Part shown: one piece after another, positions 1 through 64,000 of the stretch
Numbering within the stretch: the stretch's first letter is position 1
How the letters are laid out: each line of letters starts with the position of its first letter
Source: Myxococcota bacterium
GTDB lineage: Bacteria > Myxococcota > B64-G9
Reading direction: 5' to 3'
Length of the DNA: 64,000 bases
NCBI GenBank assembly: GCA_035528415.1
Contig: DATKYQ010000040.1
Location: forward strand, 28,296-92,295
Program-made: the position numbers and the translations under genes
The notes under the pieces: generated by a model
Database searches by the model: none
What the model was told of the DNA's origin: nothing
Seen by the model: the letters and a program-made list of their open reading frames with translations, nothing else

Positions 1-1521
1 GACGCATGTCGCGGCGGATACGGCAAACATGGCGCCGAAGGCCGCGTCGCCCACATTGCGGCGGAAGAACAACCAGGCCATGACGAGCAGCCAGGCCCCG
101 CCGAGAACGCCTAAAAATGGATAGGGATCCAGACCGCGCGGCATGGGCCATCCGTAGTAGTAGTCGAACATGCTGATGAACCACTTGTAGTTGTGCAGGA
201 TGTCCAGCAACATGACCGCGCCTATGGGAATCGCCAGCATGGTCAGCAGGCGCATTTCGGCGCGGTCAGCATCGTTGCGGGCGCGAGCCAAGTAGACGCC
301 CACCATGACCGCCATAAAAGGAACCACCGGGAAGATGTAGTGGTGGAACTTCGTCTGAAACAGGCTGAAGGCCGCCCAGGGCACTATGGCGCCAAGCAAC
401 ACGAGCAGGTTCTTCTTGCCGGCGCCCTCGAAATCGGATGGTTTCCAGCGGATGATCCTGATGAAGGCCATCGGCAGCAGAGTGACCCACGGGTAGGTGG
501 CAAACGCCAGCTGCTTGAAGAAGACGTCGAACGTGCCCTCCTGCTTGCCGATGGTGCCCGCGGCCCGATCGAAATGATGGTAGATTACCGCCTCGCGCAC
601 GAAAGGCCAGCCGTGCTTTGCGATCATGAAGACGTGCCAGGGAAGAATCACGGCCAGCAGCGCACCGAAGCCGATCCAGTTCTTGCGCGATCCCGCGCCC
701 ATCAGGGTCGTCGCGTCCCGGCCCATCAGGAACACCAGTACCAGTGACAGGGAGACCAGGCTGAGCATGCCGGCGAAGGCGGGATCTTTCACGGAGAAAA
801 AGAAGTAAGCGGCGCAGGCTGCCATGAATAATCCCGCGCCTATCCAGGTGGCCCTTCCCACCCGGGCAAAGAAACCGCTGTCCCAGCGCAGCACAAGGAA
901 AACGAAGATTATTCCAGCAGGTATGAAGAATGCAAGCAGCCACTTGGAGAGAAAGGCAAAGCCGGTCAGCACGTAGAAGGCGATCAGGTGTCCTGGCTTG
1001 CCATGCTCGGATCTGGACAGGAAGTAGTAGCCGATCGCCGGGGTGCAAAGGGCCACAAAAGGCAGATCGAACATCAGCTGGTGGGCAAGCATGGCATACA
1101 TGGGAGAGGTCGCCAGCACAAGGGCAGAGTAAACTCCCGCCCGCCTGGAAAAAAGGCGCGACACCCATCCATAGGTCAGCAAGATGCCAAGAAGCGCCAG
1201 CAGAAAGATAGGCAGGCGGCCTGCGAAGTGCAGCCAGGGGCTCGATGGGTCGTGAACGCCGAAGACAGCAAAGGACGTGCGCAGCAACCACAACGGCAAG
1301 ATGGGTTTCGACCACCACCTGTTCTGTCCACGGTACCAGGTGTCCATCCAGCTGCCATGATCCCCCATCTCCTTGGCCACCTGCGCGTAGTGCGACTCCC
1401 AGGGATCCCAGAATGCGTAGGAACCGAGCCGGGGCAGGTACAAGGCCGAGACCAGCAGGGTGAGCAGAAGCAAAGCCTGCAGATCCTTGTTGCGGACCAG
1501 CTTGCCGAGCCTTTCACCCAT
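1..1521 (-). CDS. Glycosyltransferase family 39 / ArnT-PMT-like polytopic membrane protein (3' end runs off the left edge)
   Basis: Absent from the ORF track because no stop lies in the window. The reverse-complement frame from ATG 1521 (AAGGAG 5 nt upstream) reads MGERLGKLVRNKDLQALLLLTLLVSALYLPRLGSYAFWDPWESHYAQVAKEM... It then shows many hydrophobic helices and stays open to position 1 by my hand translation. Confidence 0.65.
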   Translation of the reverse strand, partial: MGERLGKLVRNKDLQALLLLTLLVSALYLPRLGSYAFWDPWESHYAQVAKEMGDHGSWMDTWYRGQNRWWSKPILPLWLLRTSFAVFGVHDPSSPWLHFAGRLPIFLLALLGILLTYGWVSRLFSRRAGVYSALVLATSPMYAMLAHQLMFDLPFVALCTPAIGYYFLSRSEHGKPGHLIAFYVLTGFAFLSKWLLAFFIPAGIIFVFLVLRWDSGFFARVGRATWIGAGLFMAACAAYFFFSVKDPAFAGMLSLVSLSLVLVFLMGRDATTLMGAGSRKNWIGFGALLAVILPWHVFMIAKHGWPFVREAVIYHHFDRAAGTIGKQEGTFDVFFKQLAFATYPWVTLLPMAFIRIIRWKPSDFEGAGKKNLLVLLGAIVPWAAFSLFQTKFHHYIFPVVPFMAVMVGVYLARARNDADRAEMRLLTMLAIPIGAVMLLDILHNYKWFISMFDYYYGWPMPRGLDPYPFLGVLGGAWLLVMAWLFFRRNVGDAAFGAMFAVSAATCV

Positions 1522-56746: not shown

Positions 56747-57328
56747 TCAAAAAGACGAAAACATGCGGATGATCTTGGCCAGGCCCTCGTCGGAAACGAT
56801 CGTCTCCTGTCCGCCGGCCGGCGACGTACTTTCCGCCACACCATCGAGACCGAGCACCCCCTCCTCCAGCGGAGCCAGATCGAGAATTTCCTCGTCCGAG
56901 GCATTTTCGTTGCCGTCCTTCTGCATCCGGAGCGCGAACTCATTGAGATCATCGTGAAACGGCGGTAGGTGCTGCATCAATTCGTCACGCTGATCGATGG
57001 GCAGGTTGCGGAAGTTTAGGTTGTCCACCATGAACCCCATGCTCTCTACGAATTGCAAGGCATCGAGTTCTATGTCGTGATACGACTCCATTGGAATCTC
57101 CACCGGATCGTGAAGATATATAAGGCACTCCTTGCTCTGCAGCAGGTGCAGGTAGACGTAGACCGAGAACAGGCCCGAGGCATTGCGAACGCCGACAATA
57201 AAGGCCTTGGTCGGCTCGAGCGGCTTGTCCGCCGCGGCCACCATCGGCTTGTTGATCGACTCGATGATGGCTACGATCTGCTCACTGCTTGTCTGGATGA
57301 ATTTCAGCTCGGGATGAATCTCGTACAC
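56747..57328 (-). CDS. Hypothetical cytoplasmic protein
   Basis: GTG start. 193 aa with an acidic C-terminal half and no recognisable motif. Confidence 0.5.
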   Translation of the reverse strand: MYEIHPELKFIQTSSEQIVAIIESINKPMVAAADKPLEPTKAFIVGVRNASGLFSVYVYLHLLQSKECLIYLHDPVEIPMESYHDIELDALQFVESMGFMVDNLNFRNLPIDQRDELMQHLPPFHDDLNEFALRMQKDGNENASDEEILDLAPLEEGVLGLDGVAESTSPAGGQETIVSDEGLAKIIRMFSSF

Positions 57329-57357
57329 GTTTGTTCCGCCTCGTTCAGGCTGCGTGC

Positions 57358-57954
57358 CTATTGCACCGTTATGGTGAACTCGTCGTTGAAGTTCTGAGTT
57401 TCATCGGCCGTTCGCGAGTACTGGACCAGCGGGTTTTCGATCATCACGTTGTTGCCGCCGACGTTGCCCTCACCGATGATTATCCGCATGTAAACCTGTT
57501 TCGAGAAGCTCTTGCGTTGCTTGCCCACGTTTTTCGAGGCCGCAAAATGTATGACGTTGGAACCGGGACGCAGGTACTTGGTGATCTCCTGGACCACCTG
57601 CTCGTCGTCTGAGCGAATACGCTTGAACCAGACGCTGTTGATGTAGATGTCGATATCGTACTGGGTTTTTCCCGGGTAGTTTTCCTCTTTAATCAACCAG
57701 TAACGTTTGGTGGCTGTCGCGCTCGGGTTGGCCGCCGATGCCTGTCCCTTCCCTGCATCGCCCTGGACGGCGTATCCGGGAGCTTCGATCAAGACGTTTC
57801 CCTTGGCGTCGATTGTCACCGTGCATTTTTCGAACTTCTGGTTGGTAATGCCGTCGACACGCGTCCCGTTGAGAAAAATGCTTCCCGCCACGGCCGACCC
57901 GGCCGCAAGCAAAAGCAACATCAACAGAATTATTTCGACTCGCGAGCGTTTCAT
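57358..57954 (-). CDS. Hypothetical secreted protein
   Basis: Start at MKRSRVEIILLMLLLLAAGSAVAG, a signal peptide. Beta-rich body. Confidence 0.55.
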   Translation of the reverse strand: MKRSRVEIILLMLLLLAAGSAVAGSIFLNGTRVDGITNQKFEKCTVTIDAKGNVLIEAPGYAVQGDAGKGQASAANPSATATKRYWLIKEENYPGKTQYDIDIYINSVWFKRIRSDDEQVVQEITKYLRPGSNVIHFAASKNVGKQRKSFSKQVYMRIIIGEGNVGGNNVMIENPLVQYSRTADETQNFNDEFTITVQ

Positions 57955-57990
57955 GGCAATACTCTTGTCTAGCAATTACACTACTTTCTT

Positions 57991-58674
57991 CTACCCGGGA
58001 ATCTCCGCCACGTCAAGGATCCTGCGCTGATCGCCCCCATCCGGCCAAAGGATCTCGTGGAGTTGCACCTGGATCCTTGCCTGTCTTCCGGAGTCGAGCA
58101 GCCAGTCGGCCAGTCGGCCGGGCTCTAGGATGTTCGACGCCGCTGAGAAGAGGATTTTCACTTCCTCAGACGGAGCGTGTTTTTCAAGCATCGCGCACGA
58201 CCAGTCGAAATCCTGCTTGTCCGTGACAACGATTTTCAGCTCGTCCCCCGCCTTGAGCCTGCCCAGGTTCATAAGATCCATACTATCTTGCTCGCCACTG
58301 CCGGGGGCCTTGAGGTCCATGATGACATGCACGCCCTCGGGAACCACAGAGATGTCCCGGCTACCGTTGGTCTCGAGCAGCACGGACTTTCCGGCGCTGA
58401 CTAACTCCGTGCACAGGCCTATGGTGTCGGCCTGCAAGAGCGGCTCTCCGCCGGTGACGATCACCAGGTGGTCACCCGTGCCGGCCATAAGGTCGAAGAC
58501 CCGCGCAGGCGTCATCCGGCGACCCGGCTCCCAGGCGCGACGCGTATCGCACCAATTGCAGCGCAGGTTGCATCCCGAAAGGCGCACGAAGGTCGCCGGC
58601 AGCCCCGCCCGGGTAGTCTCACCGGAGATCGACCTGAACATCTCGCAGATTTCGAGTGTCTCAGCGTCGTTCAT
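57991..58674 (-). CDS. queE: 7-carboxy-7-deazaguanine synthase (radical SAM)
   Basis: FVRLSGCNLRCNWCDT cluster motif. Start at MNDAETLEICEMF, overlapping the queD 3' end by 14 nt. Confidence 0.85.
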   Translation of the reverse strand: MNDAETLEICEMFRSISGETTRAGLPATFVRLSGCNLRCNWCDTRRAWEPGRRMTPARVFDLMAGTGDHLVIVTGGEPLLQADTIGLCTELVSAGKSVLLETNGSRDISVVPEGVHVIMDLKAPGSGEQDSMDLMNLGRLKAGDELKIVVTDKQDFDWSCAMLEKHAPSEEVKILFSAASNILEPGRLADWLLDSGRQARIQVQLHEILWPDGGDQRRILDVAEIPG

Positions 58675-59038
58675 GATAGGTGACACATGCCCCCTCGGTC
58701 TCCCAGACACGAATGGCAAGCAGCTCGACCCGGTCGCCCGCCAGGGCCTCGGCCAGGCCCCGGTAAATGACCCTAGCCATATTCTCGCTGGAGGGGTTCA
58801 GCTCGGCGAATTCCTGCAGCCCGTTAAGATCGGCGTGGTCGAAGCGGTCCGCAACCTTCCCGAGTTTTTCACGCAACAAGCCGAAATCCAGCGAAAGCCC
58901 CGTCTGGTCGAGTTCTTCGGTGCCGACGGTAGCTTCAACCTTGTAGTTGTGCCCGTGAACGTTCTCGCATTTTCCCCGGTAGCCGCGCAGGTGATGAGCC
59001 GCCGCAATGTTCACCGTGACAGTAGCCTCGAACATCAT
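58661..59038 (-). CDS. queD: 6-carboxy-5,6,7,8-tetrahydropterin synthase
   Basis: AAHHLRGYRGKCENVHGHNY signature. 125 aa. Confidence 0.9.
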   Translation of the reverse strand: MMFEATVTVNIAAAHHLRGYRGKCENVHGHNYKVEATVGTEELDQTGLSLDFGLLREKLGKVADRFDHADLNGLQEFAELNPSSENMARVIYRGLAEALAGDRVELLAIRVWETEGACVTYHERR

Positions 59039-59162
59039 CGATCCTTTCCTGGAAGTGTTAAAATTCTACCAATACAGCATAGCGCCCCGACTTGCGTCTT
59101 GGCCATGAAATAAATGACACTCAGAATAAGCTTGTGGTATCAGGATAGCGGGAGACTGAGAG

Positions 59163-60212
59163 ATGGGAATCAGCTTCGAAAAGTTCACCGAATCCGTCGA
59201 GTTTCACAGTCCCATGCAATGCATGGAGCTGGTCAAGCACGTCATCGAAAGACGCCGCGATCCGTTGACCGGGCGCATAGCCATCGGCAGCCTGGCACTG
59301 GCCGGTAAGGGCGAGTTCTTCTTCGGCCCTACCGACCAGGCGCTGATCGAGAAGATCGCCACGGACACCCGCAGCAACTGCTTGTTTTGCCCCGAATACG
59401 TCGAACGATCCACCCCGCGCTACCGTGACGCATGGCTCCCGGGCGGCGCCCTGCGGCAGGGGGAATGTTTTTTGTTTCCCAACCTTTTTCCACTCAGCGC
59501 GGTCCACGCCGTTGTTGTGCTGGGCGAGAAGCACTACCGCAACCTCGATGACTTCCCGGCCGATCTCGTTCGCGACGGCCTGGCAGTGTCGCTTGATTTC
59601 ATTCGCACGCTTTTCGGCAACGCCCCCGAGAACGCCTATTTCACCGTCAACGCCAACTACCTCTTCCCGGCCGGGGCATCCATGGTTCACCCGCACATGC
59701 AGATCTTCGGCGGGCGCTACCCGGCAACCGCCGTCAGCGAGCTTTTGGATGACTGCCGCCGATATCACGATGAAAACGGCCGGGACTATTTCGAACAACT
59801 AGTCGAGGAGGAGGAGAAACTCGGAAAACGTTATATACGTTCTAGCGGTCCGGTACATTGGCTGACGCCGTTCGCACCGACTGGAACCAACGAAGTGCTC
59901 GGTGTTCTGCCAGATCGCCCGCACCTGCTGCGTCTCGATGATACGGCAATAGAAGGGCTGGCGATGGGGATCTCGACGGTGCTCGCATACTACGGCGAAA
60001 AAGGTTTCTCCACATTCAACTTCAGCCTCTATTCGGGCCGGCTGAACGACGAGGCATCCCCGGCACCTGTCTTTGTCCGTATTCTCTGCCGCCAGAACGT
60101 GCGCAAGTACTACCGCGCCGACGATTACTTCATCCAGAAGCTGCTGGGCGAGGAGCTGATCTTGACCACGCCCGAGGATCTGGCAGCCGGCCTGAGGAGT
60201 TTCTGGAAATGA
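59163..60212 (+). CDS. GalT / HIT-superfamily nucleotidyltransferase-like protein
   Basis: CLFCPE zinc knuckle and the HPHMQ (HxHxQ) active-site motif in GalT-like order. ATGA overlap with the downstream gene. Confidence 0.6.
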   Translation: MGISFEKFTESVEFHSPMQCMELVKHVIERRRDPLTGRIAIGSLALAGKGEFFFGPTDQALIEKIATDTRSNCLFCPEYVERSTPRYRDAWLPGGALRQGECFLFPNLFPLSAVHAVVVLGEKHYRNLDDFPADLVRDGLAVSLDFIRTLFGNAPENAYFTVNANYLFPAGASMVHPHMQIFGGRYPATAVSELLDDCRRYHDENGRDYFEQLVEEEEKLGKRYIRSSGPVHWLTPFAPTGTNEVLGVLPDRPHLLRLDDTAIEGLAMGISTVLAYYGEKGFSTFNFSLYSGRLNDEASPAPVFVRILCRQNVRKYYRADDYFIQKLLGEELILTTPEDLAAGLRSFWK

Positions 60213-63019
60213 ACGAATCCGCTTTCTTCAACTATCTGGTCTGGGCTTGGTTGGCGACGGCTTTATTCACCTTCGTGCTGCTGTTTTTCATAAAGGCCCC
60301 CTACGGGCGCTACACTCGGCGTGGCTGGGGCCCGATTATCGACAGGCGTCTGGGCTGGATCATCATGGAGACGCCATCCCTTTTATTTTTTGGCCTGTTC
60401 TTCATTCTGGGCAACAGGCACACGGACAGCATGGCGATCGTCTTTCTCTCGCTGTGGGTAGTACACTACTTCCACCGCTCGTTCATCTATCCCTTCCAGA
60501 CACGCGGCAAATTGAAAACTCAGACGCTCGTGCCGGTGGCGCTGGCAGTGGTTTTCAACCTGGGCAACACTTACATCAACGGCCGCTGGCTTTTCAGCCT
60601 CGGCCCCGGTTACGGGCCGGACTGGTTCGGCGATCCGCGCTTCATGATCGGCATCGCCATGTTCGCCGCGGGTTTCGCAATCTGCAAGCACTCTGATCAC
60701 ATTCTCAGAAACCTGCGTAAGCCCGGCGAGAGCGGTTACAAGATCCCGACCGGCGGCATGTACCGGCTGGTCTCGTGCCCCAACTACCTGGGCGAGATAA
60801 TCGAGTGGAGCGGCTGGGCCGTGGCCACCTGGTCCTTGGCCGGGTTGAGCTTCGCCGCCTGGACATTCGCCAACCTGGTCCCGCGCGCCTGGTCGCATCA
60901 GCGCTGGTACCGTCAAAAGTTCCCCGACTACCCGCCGAAGCGGCGGGCGGTCTTTCCGTTTATCTTGTCGCTGTCTGTGCTGCTGGTGGCGGCCTTTCCG
61001 CGAATATCAGCAGCCGACGAGCCGTCCGATCAGCCAAGGGATGAGCTTGAGGACGAATTTGAACTGCTCCAGGAAGACGAGATTGTATACACCGCCTCCA
61101 AGCACGCCCAGGACATTTCCGAGTCCCCATCGGCCATCACGCTGATCACCCGCGAGCAGATCGAGAATACCCACTGCAGCGACATCGTCTGCCTGCTCAG
61201 GCAGGTGCCCGAGGTGGAAGTCCGGCGCGTGCTGCCGATGTTCCACTCGGTCGGCGCCCGGGCGCTGGCCGGCGAGCTTGGCGACAAGGTGCTGGTGCTT
61301 ATTGACGGGCGCGAGATCAACAACGAGCTGTTCGGCGTCGTCTACTGGGCGGGCATGCCGGTGCACCTGGAGGAAATCGAGCGCATCGAGGTCATCCGCG
61401 GGCCGGGCTCGGCGCTCTACGGGGCCAACGCCCATTCGATGGTTGTGTCGATCACCACCCTCAAGCCCGACGCCGACCGGGCCGAGGCTTTCTTAGGCGC
61501 CGGCGAGCAGGGGCGCGAGAGCGAACATGTCAGGCTCGACCGCATTTTCGGCGATTGGCGTCTGAGCCTGGCAGGCTCACGGGAGATCGCGGACAACTGG
61601 CGCATCCGAGATAAACGCGAACGCGAGGTGCACAGTGTGCGCCTCAGGCTGGAACATGCCGGCGAATCGTCCGGCACCTCTTTGGACATTGGCCTGGTGG
61701 ACGGCGAGGGCGAATTTTCCGCCGGCATTACCACATGTAAGTGGGACAACGTTTACCTGGCTCACGCGGTGCTCGACCACTCGCGCGACTGGCTCAAGGC
61801 GCGGGCCACTTTCAACCTGATGTACGGCAAAATGGTTCCCCTGGTAAAACTGGACTACCATGGAATCGAGCTGGGCCGGGCGCCCGATTCCGTGACCTAC
61901 AACAATCCCAGCCTCGGTGTCGAGTTGCAGACCAACTGGGCTCCTTTCGAGGGCAACCTGCTCGTCGCCGGCACGAACTACCGCTGGATCGCCATGTACT
62001 CGGACATGAATGATCCCGACCAGGAACAGCAGCACCGGGTCGGCCTCTTCGTCCAGGATGAACAGCGTTTGTTCGATCAACTAACGCTGAACCTCGGCCT
62101 GCGCCTGGACTACAACAGCATCACGCCCTTTACCTTCAGCCCGCGCCTGGCCGTGGTCTGGCGTATGGTGTCCGGGCAGCTTGCCCGCCTGGCCTTCGGC
62201 AGGGCCTTCCGCAAGCCCTCCTTCATGAACACCTCGTTCCATTTTCTGGGCTTCGAGGGTACGGCGGCATTCCCAGAGCTGGGCGATTTCTTCAAGAACA
62301 ACTTCGGCAATCCCGATCTCGGAAACGAGAGCATCACCGTCTTCGAGGCCGGATACCGGGGACGCTTTCTCGACGGCGATCTGACGGCCGAGGCGGATGC
62401 CTTTTTCAACATGTATCGCGACACAATAGTCTTCAACACCGAGATCGAGCTCACTTCCCTGGGCGTGCCCGATCTTACCCGCAGCAAGATGCGTTTCGAG
62501 AACAACGGCCGCGAGGTGAACTCGGCAGGGGGATCGGTATCGCTGGTATACAAGATAAAAGAAAAGCTCAGGCTCTATCTCAACTACACATATCGCTACT
62601 CATGGTACATCGCCTCATCGTCGGAGATCGGCGTCACCGGCGTCGGCGCCAAGGGAGATCGCGTCCCCTGGGAGCCCGCGCACCTGGCCAACTCCGGTTT
62701 CTACTACCTGTTCGACTGCGGGCTGCGGTTGGGGGCCCAGGCTCATTTCCACTCGGCCCGGGACAACACCCAGAACGAGAACGGCGACCTGTTCGGCGAT
62801 GCGATCATGCTGCACAACCCGGCCCACATCATCTACAACGCCTTCGCCTCCTGGCGCCTCGAACTGAGTTGGGGCTGGATCGAGGCCGGGGTGAGAGCCT
62901 TCGACATCTTCAACGAGGGCTTCCGCGACTCGGTGGCCGTCCAGCGTACGGACGGCAGCGAGGTCGGCGGCGAATTGATCGGCCGGCGCATCTTCCTCTT
63001 CGTCCGCGGCAGCCTGTAA
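60209..63019 (+). CDS. In-frame fusion: steroid-5-alpha-reductase-like membrane reductase (about aa 1-252) plus TonB-dependent-receptor-like plug and beta-barrel (about aa 270-936)
   Basis: N-terminal part: IPTGGMYRLVSCPNYLGEIIEWSGWA...WYRQKFPDYPPKRRAVFPFIL, an SRD5A-type C-terminus. Junction: KRR-AVFPFILSLSVLLVAAF-PRISA/ADE. Then the plug: DEIVYTASKHAQDISESPSAITLITREQIE...IDGREIN...IERIEVIRGPGSALYGANA, followed by a long barrel. Confidence 0.7.
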   Translation: MNESAFFNYLVWAWLATALFTFVLLFFIKAPYGRYTRRGWGPIIDRRLGWIIMETPSLLFFGLFFILGNRHTDSMAIVFLSLWVVHYFHRSFIYPFQTRGKLKTQTLVPVALAVVFNLGNTYINGRWLFSLGPGYGPDWFGDPRFMIGIAMFAAGFAICKHSDHILRNLRKPGESGYKIPTGGMYRLVSCPNYLGEIIEWSGWAVATWSLAGLSFAAWTFANLVPRAWSHQRWYRQKFPDYPPKRRAVFPFILSLSVLLVAAFPRISAADEPSDQPRDELEDEFELLQEDEIVYTASKHAQDISESPSAITLITREQIENTHCSDIVCLLRQVPEVEVRRVLPMFHSVGARALAGELGDKVLVLIDGREINNELFGVVYWAGMPVHLEEIERIEVIRGPGSALYGANAHSMVVSITTLKPDADRAEAFLGAGEQGRESEHVRLDRIFGDWRLSLAGSREIADNWRIRDKREREVHSVRLRLEHAGESSGTSLDIGLVDGEGEFSAGITTCKWDNVYLAHAVLDHSRDWLKARATFNLMYGKMVPLVKLDYHGIELGRAPDSVTYNNPSLGVELQTNWAPFEGNLLVAGTNYRWIAMYSDMNDPDQEQQHRVGLFVQDEQRLFDQLTLNLGLRLDYNSITPFTFSPRLAVVWRMVSGQLARLAFGRAFRKPSFMNTSFHFLGFEGTAAFPELGDFFKNNFGNPDLGNESITVFEAGYRGRFLDGDLTAEADAFFNMYRDTIVFNTEIELTSLGVPDLTRSKMRFENNGREVNSAGGSVSLVYKIKEKLRLYLNYTYRYSWYIASSSEIGVTGVGAKGDRVPWEPAHLANSGFYYLFDCGLRLGAQAHFHSARDNTQNENGDLFGDAIMLHNPAHIIYNAFASWRLELSWGWIEAGVRAFDIFNEGFRDSVAVQRTDGSEVGGELIGRRIFLFVRGSL

Positions 63020-63022
63020 GGG

Positions 63023-64000
63023 TCAATCACCAAAAGCATACAGATACCCGTCCCGGGCGCCGACCACGATGCGGCCGTCCCAGATCGCGGGCGTGCTCTC
63101 TATGCAGGCCCCGGAGGGGATCGTAACGGTCCATTTCAAAATCGGCCGGCGGGGATCTTCGACGTCGTAGTCGCGGATCTGGCCTGTACAGGTTGCGACT
63201 ATCAACTGATCGTCCACCAGCGCCGGCGACGACCAGGCGTGCGGGCCGAGATCGTCGGTGAAGAGTATCTCGCCCGTCCGGCGATCCACGATCGCCAGCA
63301 TGCCCGAGTTGGTCGTCACATAGAGCGCCTGGTCGTCCAGGGCGGGTGTAGACCAGATGCCTCCCTTCCAGTCGTCTAAAGCCGGGGGAAATTCGAGGCT
63401 CCAGAGAACAGGGTCTCCCGTCGTGTATGGATCCAGTTTTACCAACTGGCCCACCTCGTCCGAGCGCGGCAGGTAGCGCTCGAGTTCGGCCGCCACGTAG
63501 AGCATTCCTTCCTCGTCGATGACGACCGAGGCGTCGATATCGTCGCCCATCCAGAAATCGAACACCAGCGGGGCTCGCCCAGAGTCGATCTGACTGGTAT
63601 CGACACCCACCACCCGGCCGGCCGAGTTGGCGAAGTACAGCCGCTTGCCGAAGGCCGCCACCGAGCTTTCGATGCTGGCGTTGCGATCGCCGACCTTTTC
63701 GAGAAGCTCCTCGGTCCAGCCCCTGATGGCCGCAAGCAGTTCCGGGCGCACGTGCACGCGCCCGCCGGGACCGTAATCGAGGTGCAGCCTGAAAGCGAAC
63801 AGGTAGCCGTTCTCGCCTCCCTCGTACAACATGTCGTCGAGCACCAGCGGGTTGCCGTCCCAGTCGTTGTTCCAGATCCCGGGGACGAAGTCGGCATCCA
63901 ACTTCCATAACTCCTGGGGCCCCCCCCCGCGATCCAGCGCGACGATACGCAGCTTGTTATCGCGCGAACCGAAGTAAATCAGCGGATCGCCGTCCGGGTC
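63023..64000 (-). CDS. PQQ-like beta-propeller repeat protein (5' end beyond the right edge)
   Basis: The frame stays open from 64000 (DPDGDPLIYFGSRDNKLRIVALD...). The track entry begins at an internal TTG. Motifs: WSTPALDDQALYVTTNSGMLAIVDRRTGEILF and TPAIWDGRIVVGARDGYLYAF. Confidence 0.65.
   Translation of the reverse strand, partial: DPDGDPLIYFGSRDNKLRIVALDRGGGPQELWKLDADFVPGIWNNDWDGNPLVLDDMLYEGGENGYLFAFRLHLDYGPGGRVHVRPELLAAIRGWTEELLEKVGDRNASIESSVAAFGKRLYFANSAGRVVGVDTSQIDSGRAPLVFDFWMGDDIDASVVIDEEGMLYVAAELERYLPRSDEVGQLVKLDPYTTGDPVLWSLEFPPALDDWKGGIWSTPALDDQALYVTTNSGMLAIVDRRTGEILFTDDLGPHAWSSPALVDDQLIVATCTGQIRDYDVEDPRRPILKWTVTIPSGACIESTPAIWDGRIVVGARDGYLYAFGD

Follow-up and report, generated by a model that had tools for sequence, protein, structure and literature searches.

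One myxococcal reading frame joins a steroid 5-alpha-reductase-family enzyme to a TonB-dependent receptor through an internal signal-peptide-like linker

The 64,000-nt stretch analysed here (the window) comes from a Myxococcota bacterium (B64-G9; assembly GCA_035528415.1, contig DATKYQ010000040.1, positions 28,296-92,295, forward strand). Within it, one open reading frame (ORF) encodes an enzyme of the 3-oxo-5-alpha-steroid 4-dehydrogenase (SRD5A) family followed by a TonB-dependent receptor (TBDR), the two joined by a segment that resembles a signal peptide placed inside the protein (Table 1). The fusion is genuine and no assembly error, both halves are under purifying selection, and two proteins, each for a different membrane, probably come from the one gene. 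We favour, with moderate confidence, a route in which a single precursor gives rise to an inner-membrane SRD5A enzyme and an outer-membrane receptor by way of the internal signal, the Sec system and signal peptidase I. An earlier note on this DNA had claimed a single ORF fusing the two modules, and the 936-aa frame and its Pfam modules bear this out. None of the findings that it had named beforehand as fatal to the idea (a missing base or a stop at the junction, a junction shown to carry no cleavable signal, or a C-terminal part without plug and barrel) was encountered.

Table 1. Features of the fusion gene and its immediate neighbours (window coordinates)
Feature	Position	Strand	Basis or remark
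GalT-like/HIT-superfamily gene, 349 aa	59163..60212	+	TGA stop overlaps fusion ATG as ATGA
Shine-Dalgarno-like GAGGAG, 9 nt before ATG 60209	60194..60199	+	sequence
Fusion ORF, 936 codons	60209..63019	+	one frame, no internal stop
SRD5A module, codons 1-253, 7 transmembrane helices, ends L253 (TTG)	60209..60967	+	PF02544, homologs
n-region K244-R245-R246 (conserved basic SRD5A tail)	60938..60946	+	sequence
h-region A247-P264, AVFPFILSLSVLLVAAFP	60947..61000	+	first 7 residues SRD5A tail, remainder new linker
Codon 254, TCG (Ser)	60968..60970	+	site of TAG stop in unfused relatives
c-region R265-I-S-A268; candidate signal peptidase I site A268/A269 (61012/61013), Pro at -5	61001..61012	+	sequence
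Mature TBDR module, A269-L936	61013..63016	+	stop codon 63017..63019
Acidic N-terminal extension of mature receptor, ADEPSDQPRDELEDEFELLQE	61013..61075	+	acidic stretch kept in homologs
TonB box DEIVYTA, residues 290-296	61076..61096	+	aligned to BtuB residues 5-12; nearly invariant in subfamily
Plug domain, residues 303-409	61115..61435	+	PF07715, 59.7 bits vs cut-off 23.9
Beta-barrel core (TonB_dep_Rec_b-barrel), residues 563-887	61895..62869	+	PF00593, 109.5 bits vs cut-off 27
PQQ-like beta-propeller gene, convergent	63023..64000	-	Beta-prop_ACSF4/PQQ_2; 3 nt past fusion stop

Judged by its sequence, the N-terminal half has every SRD5A feature tested for except a free C-terminus; it is a putative NADPH-dependent reductase. 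Residues 105-253 cover positions 3-150 of the 150 in the Steroid_dh profile (PF02544; 162.6 bits against a cut-off of 22.6), and residues 11-252 are colinear with the solved bacterial enzyme PbSRD5A (7C83, E=6e-77), so the proposal of a full domain reaching to about residue 252 holds. Human SRD5A2 (7BW1) matches at E=2e-45. Residues E54 and Y87 align with E57 and Y91 of the human enzyme, its catalytic-site Glu and Tyr, and both columns are invariant in a 29-sequence alignment (A6). All SRD5A homologs compared keep the tail motif, and the 7C83 and 7BW1 chains end one residue past the aligned 'PF(I/V)'. A free C-terminus right after ...PF(I/L)(L/F) is normal for the family; here the chain runs 683 residues further. 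All of the 120 nearest SRD5A homologs are 252-253 aa long and thus stop exactly where the window protein goes on.

The C-terminal half is likewise a TBDR in every feature tested except an N-terminal signal peptide of its own. As the earlier note had held, plug and barrel are both there, with a TonB box before them, and the protein is colinear with stand-alone receptors to its last residue. The stretch of BtuB to which the box aligns is the TonB box of that receptor. Residues 264-300 contain 12 D/E. Each of the 120 nearest receptor homologs is a stand-alone protein of ~650-815 aa that aligns from about residue 250 to 936; one of them, P0001 (locus L001), shares 81% aa identity over 668 aligned codons. 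No named substrate-specific equivalog (BtuB, CirA, FepA, TOL_0244 and others) was reached, the best NCBIfam match being TOL_0244 with 162.5 against a required 645. Where a receptor would carry a Sec signal peptide at the start of its gene product, the signal-like segment here occupies residues 244-268, behind a seven-helix enzyme.

The junction reads ...PPKRRAVFPFIL|SLSVLLVAAFPRISA|ADEPSDQ... and offers the parts of a signal peptide in order: a basic n-region, an h-region, a small residue at -1, an allowed residue at -3 and a helix breaker. It departs from the class in position, lying at residues 244-268 of 936 and not at an N-terminus. The h-region, which we propose as an eighth membrane-spanning segment in N-in/C-out orientation, reaches a Kyte-Doolittle peak of 2.08 (residues 248-266) and has an uncharged core of 17-18 residues. 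The description of this segment as a textbook signal peptide stands for the n-region, the h-region and the Ala at -1; the small residue said to lie at -3 is, for a cut after A268, an Ile, which is allowed, and the alternative cut after A269 would put Ser there. In alignment A4 the linker falls in the same columns as the cleavable signal peptides of stand-alone receptors, with the 'A|(A/Q)(D/E)E' site in register, and significant similarity (z 4-16) links the leaders of the window, of a second fused locus (L022) and of L001. The AF2 model, covering residues 1-310, has seven confident long helices (pLDDT, the predicted local distance difference test score, mostly >90) and a short low-confidence helix at 250-262, while residues 267-276, around the candidate cut, are unstructured (pLDDT <50).

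For such a segment to act as a signal, the C-terminus of the SRD5A half would have to be cytoplasmic. This premise of the earlier note is documented for PbSRD5A, which has seven transmembrane helices, a periplasmic N-terminus and a cytosolic C-terminus (PMC7815742). The positive-inside pattern of the window protein agrees, with 7 K/R in residues 222-247 and none at the protein N-terminus.

That the join is no artefact follows from L022 (Ga0315535_1013739), a locus from another organism and another sample whose reading frame crosses the junction in the same way. Colinear with window positions 57277..61119 at 80% nt identity (86.8% within the SRD5A part), it reads ...KRRAIFPFIL-SLALLMIVAYPQASDA-AEPQDELEEEFELLHEDEIVYTASKHAQDI in frame to the contig end. 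Its linker, SLALLMIVAYPQASDA|AEP, follows the scheme KRR ... P(-6)-Q-A-S(-3)-D-A(-1)|A; between the two lineages the linker has diverged fast yet keeps the basic n-region, the hydrophobic core, a Pro at -5/-6 and the small residue at -1. Codons 253|254 are TTG|TCG in the window and TTA|TCA in L022, against TTG|TAG and CTT|TAG in the unfused loci L006 and L049. The stop expected at the junction of split orthologs was thus found, as a TAG right after L253.

The contrary possibility is that a missing stop, a frameshift or a chimeric join has merged what are truly two genes. The identical 936-aa protein occurs on ~107.8-kb contigs from JGI (3300031539), ENA and NCBI; the JGI and ENA loci show no difference over 22.8 kb, so the public contigs may share one read set, and contigs of the L022 lineage break near the junction. 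We nevertheless give an artefact almost no credence: L022 reaches the same frame with a different sense codon 254, both flanks of the receptor segment are colinear with a single relative locus, L006, which would call for two compensating misjoins, and GC and GC3 (GC at third codon positions) are uniform across the segment and its flanks. Neither the missing base nor the stop that would have pointed to two genes appears in the identical contigs or in L022.

In the route that we favour, translation from the SRD5A ATG at 60209 would produce a 936-aa precursor, whose seven SRD5A helices would insert co-translationally, with a periplasmic N-terminus and a cytoplasmic C-terminus. KRR would then act as n-region, and AVFPFILSLSVLLVAAFP would enter the membrane N-in/C-out as an internal signal sequence. 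Sec would translocate the ~670-residue receptor, and signal peptidase I would cut after ISA268 (or A269). The receptor, beginning ADEPSDQ..., would be released to the periplasm and assembled in the outer membrane with the help of the beta-barrel assembly machinery (BAM); SRD5A would remain in the inner membrane, 15 residues longer at its C-terminus. That the eighth segment inserts, that the precursor is cleaved and that the receptor reaches the outer membrane are predictions from the sequence, and the mechanism predicts a specific neo-N-terminus, ADEPSDQPR....

A different way to obtain a receptor from this gene would be to translate it alone from a start within the linker, with the long fusion as a by-product. 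As had been noted before, the only in-frame starts near the junction are TTG 60965 (L253), GTG 60977 and GTG 60986, all of which would leave out the charged n-region; the last in-frame ATG is codon 184. For P0001 the gene caller chose an ATG to which GTG 60977 corresponds in position, and the L001 leader also does without a basic n-region, both of which would suit an internal start. No Shine-Dalgarno core was found at any of these candidates, whereas the fusion ATG has one, as do 10/17 genes of the locus. Nor are the codons conserved: TTG253 and GTG257 are both TTA in L022, whose only candidates are ATG259 and GTG261 with leaders of 9-11 residues. The leaders that internal starts would give (<=16 residues, <=12 from GTG/ATG) have no basic n-region and are far from functional Sec signals, and ribosomes engaged on SRD5A would run through the site. 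Initiation inside the linker thus looks unlikely from these features, and we consider it very improbable that separate translation explains the gene.

The architecture is rare. A filter-only HMMER pass was made over 1.84 billion cluster representatives and the best 150 were checked for both halves; no other protein matching both was found among those 150, and no fused members were hidden in the nearest SRD5A or receptor clusters. GTDB gives the label 'uncultured Myxococcales bacterium' to the representatives in which the closest loci (L040, L049) lie, and given the absence of other fusions in the search the architecture appears confined to a small clade of uncultured Myxococcales. Several apparent fusions were rejected. 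Loci L043, L046, L027, L034 and L047, where tblastn alignments ran past residue 253, have normal stops, the overruns being alignment artefacts; L014 and L024, flagged in the same way, are ordinary receptors. P0257 (916 aa, RME21551.1, in the P0006 cluster) has an over-called start, with 208 Arg/Ala/Gly-rich residues before its true signal peptide, MKMHRVAIVLL...VHG|QDEP.

By comparison with unfused loci the fusion is the derived state. L006 (77-80% nt) has the order QueE-QueD-GalT-like-SRD5A (253 aa, TAG), then 22 nt and a convergent beta-propeller gene, with no receptor. SRD5A with a stop, a beta-propeller gene close downstream and no receptor is also the arrangement of L009/L010 and of L008, where an EamA gene lies between. 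Relative to L006, window positions ~60958..63047 are an insertion, whose ortholog (83% nt) is the stand-alone receptor of L001. A receptor gene would have come to lie in the gap that separates a free-standing SRD5A gene from the beta-propeller gene convergent with it. The stop codon of SRD5A is absent, as is the beginning of the receptor signal peptide, so that the SRD5A frame passes directly into the h- and c-regions of the latter; the join may date from the insertion or from a later deletion of intergenic DNA. In SRD5A sequence the fused loci group together, at the 86.8% nt given above, and apart from L006, at about 80%, which makes a single fusion origin the simplest reading. Downstream of the L001 receptor (L001 2204-2560) comes a decayed beta-propeller fragment that has lost 225 nt in frame and has a stop upstream, and after it a DUF4476 gene. 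L001 and the window therefore have the receptor/beta-propeller junction in common but not the one with SRD5A; the DNA upstream of the L001 receptor was compared with an SRD5A 3' end and showed no trace of it (z=0.36). A foreign origin of the receptor segment was likewise rejected, its GC and GC3 being equal to those of the flanks. Receptor orthologs of 55-59% identity occur elsewhere right after an Asn/Asp-tRNA synthetase gene, with a 4-nt gap or a 1-nt overlap (L004 2-730, L005 4601-6001), a conserved setting unlike that of the window.

Selection was gauged by the ratio of nonsynonymous to synonymous divergence (dN/dS). Between the two fused loci, window and L022, SRD5A has dN/dS 0.118 (dS 0.52), the GalT-like gene upstream 0.105 (dS 1.0), and codons 254-303 of the fusion 0.076, at a saturated dS of 2.14. 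Within the latter codons the TonB-box region is almost invariant and the linker fast-changing; signal peptides in general change fast in sequence. The mature receptor, compared between the window and L001 over 668 codons, has dN/dS 0.206 (dS 0.53). A TBDR works only in the outer membrane, and a receptor under such constraint implies export.

A number of observations weigh against processing into two functional products. More distant relatives do not have SRD5A and the receptor side by side, so that a functional link between the halves is not evident. The locus is unstable: L049, the closest relative at 91-95% nt to the window, is SRD5A-TAG and has lost the receptor but for its 3' end, positions 151-584 being 434 nt without detectable similarity to any locus compared, followed by the last 14 coding nt and the stop of the receptor. 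In L001 the receptor is unfused, with in-frame stops upstream, and sits beside the decayed beta-propeller fragment. Only the first ~50 receptor residues are seen in L022, and its contig (ending at residue 303) and the metagenome-assembled genome contig L040 of the same lineage (ending at residue 242) both break within ~60 codons of the junction; these breaks may reflect graph branching from strain variants, fused and unfused, or conserved receptor paralog repeats. Seven residues of the h-region belong to the SRD5A tail, and drawing them into the membrane might compromise the enzyme, because the C-terminal conformation of SRD5A is important for activity (PMC7815742). The h-region itself, at 17-18 uncharged residues, is among the longer ones for a signal peptide that is cleaved. 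Apart from these points, L049 also holds an ORF (468..752) that starts MKDLSMHPGRLIVLSVLSLQVYTCAVALA|AEP, looks signal-peptide-like and runs antisense into the beta-propeller gene; as an ancestral receptor start it was rejected, at z <1.5 against the leaders of the window, L022 and L001.

Taken together, instability, rarity and a non-ancestral adjacency would suit a real fusion that is a tolerated accident, its receptor not correctly exported or cleaved and heading for loss, with SRD5A alone or neither half functional. L049 with its stop and receptor loss and L001 with a rearranged copy beside a pseudogene fragment point that way, as does an architecture known in two lineages only among the 1.84 billion representatives. 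We judge this unlikely, since window and L022, at dS of about 0.5-1.0, have both kept the frame open, codons 254-303, TonB box included, are under the constraint given above in the fused lineages, the 668-codon receptor is intact at 81% identity to P0001 with dN/dS of 0.21, and the linker has retained its signal-peptide features despite rapid change.

The length of the h-region bears on a further alternative, in which the precursor functions uncleaved and the eighth helix anchors the receptor N-terminus as a covalent tether from inner to outer membrane. Longer h-regions tend towards uncleaved anchors (PMC2120157), and an anchored periplasmic domain is plausible for one of the parallel fusion families described below. 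A tether of this kind would be left with only ~35 residues between helix and plug, too short for a typical periplasm by its established dimensions; the small -1 residue and the helix-breaking Pro are kept at the cleavage position of stand-alone homologs; and BAM assembly of a barrel tethered to the inner membrane is not known. We hold this arrangement to be highly improbable.

The proposed mechanism gains from the existence of parallel cases. An exhaustive search returned two SRD5A homologs with long C-terminal extensions, P0282 and P0382. The first (528 aa; locus L052) reads ...PPRRKALVP-LALLAAGLGFGLPPAGA|QETV... and continues into a tetratricopeptide repeat (TPR)-like domain. It belongs to a conserved SRD5A::TPR family (P0282, P0408-P0418) of 12 cluster representatives, 516-529 aa long and 65-100% identical at full coverage, drawn from JGI, ENA and Logan on contigs of up to 32 kb. 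Stand-alone TPR-like homologs (292-339 aa; P0419, P0421, P0422, P0437) have canonical N-terminal signal peptides that align exactly with the fused linker. The second, P0382 (573 aa; L053 342-2063), lies on a single 2.3-kb metagenome contig and reads ...RPRKRLIPYIW-VLLPLMVVSSSSTA|QSKE..., with the linker RPRKRLIPYIWVLLPLMVVSSSSTA|QSKE between SRD5A and a PCMD domain (PF13201).

Both types resemble the window protein in layout. Their N-terminal SRD5A has the tail ...R(R/K)(K/R)ALVP and passes into a hydrophobic stretch with AxA|Q, then into a domain whose stand-alone homologs have a cleavable N-terminal signal peptide at just this position. They differ in that the partner is a soluble periplasmic-type domain and not an outer-membrane barrel, and the TPR family is broader, with its 12 clusters. 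Their SRD5A parts are 40-48% identical to that of the window and fall in different subclades; SRD5A::TPR and SRD5A::PCMD, with their different partners, arose independently of the window fusion. On at least three occasions, then, the basic and hydrophobic SRD5A tail has been recruited to provide the n-region for the signal sequence of an exported protein encoded downstream, and such repetition strengthens the mechanistic reading proposed for the window. Other SRD5A homologs carry extra domains of a different kind: P0441 (600 aa), which also matches NAD-dependent epimerase/dehydratase-type families, P0440 (497 aa) and P0292 (455 aa), the last with a 200-aa N-terminal extension.

A more sweeping generalization is possible, and we advance it as doubtful: that the SRD5A tail, with its basic residues and xxPFIL, is a ready-made mimic of an n-region, that loss of the stop repeatedly creates viable two-protein precursors with downstream exported proteins (TBDR, TPR-like, PCMD), and that the window holds the first single gene known to supply both inner and outer membrane. 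The two products may also work together, one possibility being that they take up and reduce a steroid- or polyprenoid-like compound at a fixed 1:1 stoichiometry. Should processing go as proposed, an enzyme for the inner membrane and a 22-strand barrel for the outer would come from one bacterial gene. It would then be a natural test case for biogenesis, an outer-membrane protein being forced through co-translational targeting of the signal recognition particle type behind seven transmembrane helices, with signal peptidase I acting on an internal signal. A general route to fusion is conceivable, in which N-out/C-in membrane proteins with basic tails join downstream secreted proteins. Such fusions also pose an annotation problem, as they risk being named from one half only; JGI names members of the SRD5A::TPR family SRD5A or Ste14-type enzymes.

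Upstream, the coupling by ATGA that had been described for the preceding gene is there, and its identity as GalT-like is less secure, the label resting on weak sub-threshold matches (galT NCBIfam E=8e-5; HIT E=2e-3). The gene also precedes SRD5A in L006 and L022, with the same ATGA overlap as in the window, and in L007; in L052, a 402-aa gene overlaps the SRD5A start by 4 nt. Copies of ~349 aa lie at L006 2444-3493, L007 1416-2462 and L008 1661-2722, with two genes between in L008. A B12-binding radical-SAM gene stands just upstream of the GalT-like gene in L007 and L008 and, in the window, downstream of the beta-propeller gene. The GalT-like/SRD5A/radical-SAM neighbourhood may be an uncharacterised lipid-modification operon. 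Further upstream in the window, two small genes on the minus strand (57358-57975, 198-205 aa, and 56747-57328, 193 aa) have no Pfam match and lie between a TPR gene and QueE, an order repeated in L006 and L009/L010.

How does the fusion compare with known systems? With PbSRD5A (7C83; PMC7815742) the enzyme half shares seven transmembrane helices, the Glu/Tyr columns and the C-terminal motif ...YPxxR(K/R)AxxPF(I/V); the PbSRD5A chain ends one residue past PF(I/V), and that of the window is 683 residues longer. With stand-alone TBDRs (P0001-P0120) the receptor half shares the TonB box, plug, barrel, acidic N-terminal stretch and 'A|(A/Q)(D/E)E' site; those proteins have their own Met and basic n-region, whereas the window's n-region and the start of its h-region are the SRD5A tail. 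Its nearest solved relatives, by the plug only, are CirA 2HDF, PhuR 8THE and BtuB 1NQE. Viral polyproteins offer a likeness in processing. Host signal peptidase cuts them at internal signals, as at hepatitis C virus core-E1 (PMC5402940) and bunyavirus Gn/Gc (PMC5113920), and there too an internal hydrophobic signal lies behind an upstream protein and the cut falls on the far side of the membrane. These are viral genomes acting at the eukaryotic endoplasmic reticulum, and their products are not sorted to two bacterial membranes.

Our search of the literature for an internal signal peptide combined with a TonB-dependent receptor found none. We know of no inner-membrane enzyme fused to an outer-membrane TBDR, nor of an inner- and outer-membrane pair made by way of an internal signal. 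The statement in the earlier note that no precedent was known is nevertheless too strong for the principle. The cytochrome b/c1 polyprotein FbcH of Bradyrhizobium japonicum reportedly stems from a single ORF in which a polytopic membrane protein is followed by an internal signal sequence and then by an exported protein, and is processed at that signal. The window ORF has the same layout: a polytopic inner-membrane protein with a cytoplasmic C-terminus, no stop, an internal signal sequence and a second, exported protein. Both FbcH products reportedly stay in the inner membrane as parts of one complex, and their processing is reported to have been shown experimentally, whereas in the window it is predicted. 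The second product of the window gene would instead be a beta-barrel of the outer membrane, nothing evident tying it functionally to the first, and the n-region of its signal is the enzyme's own conserved tail.

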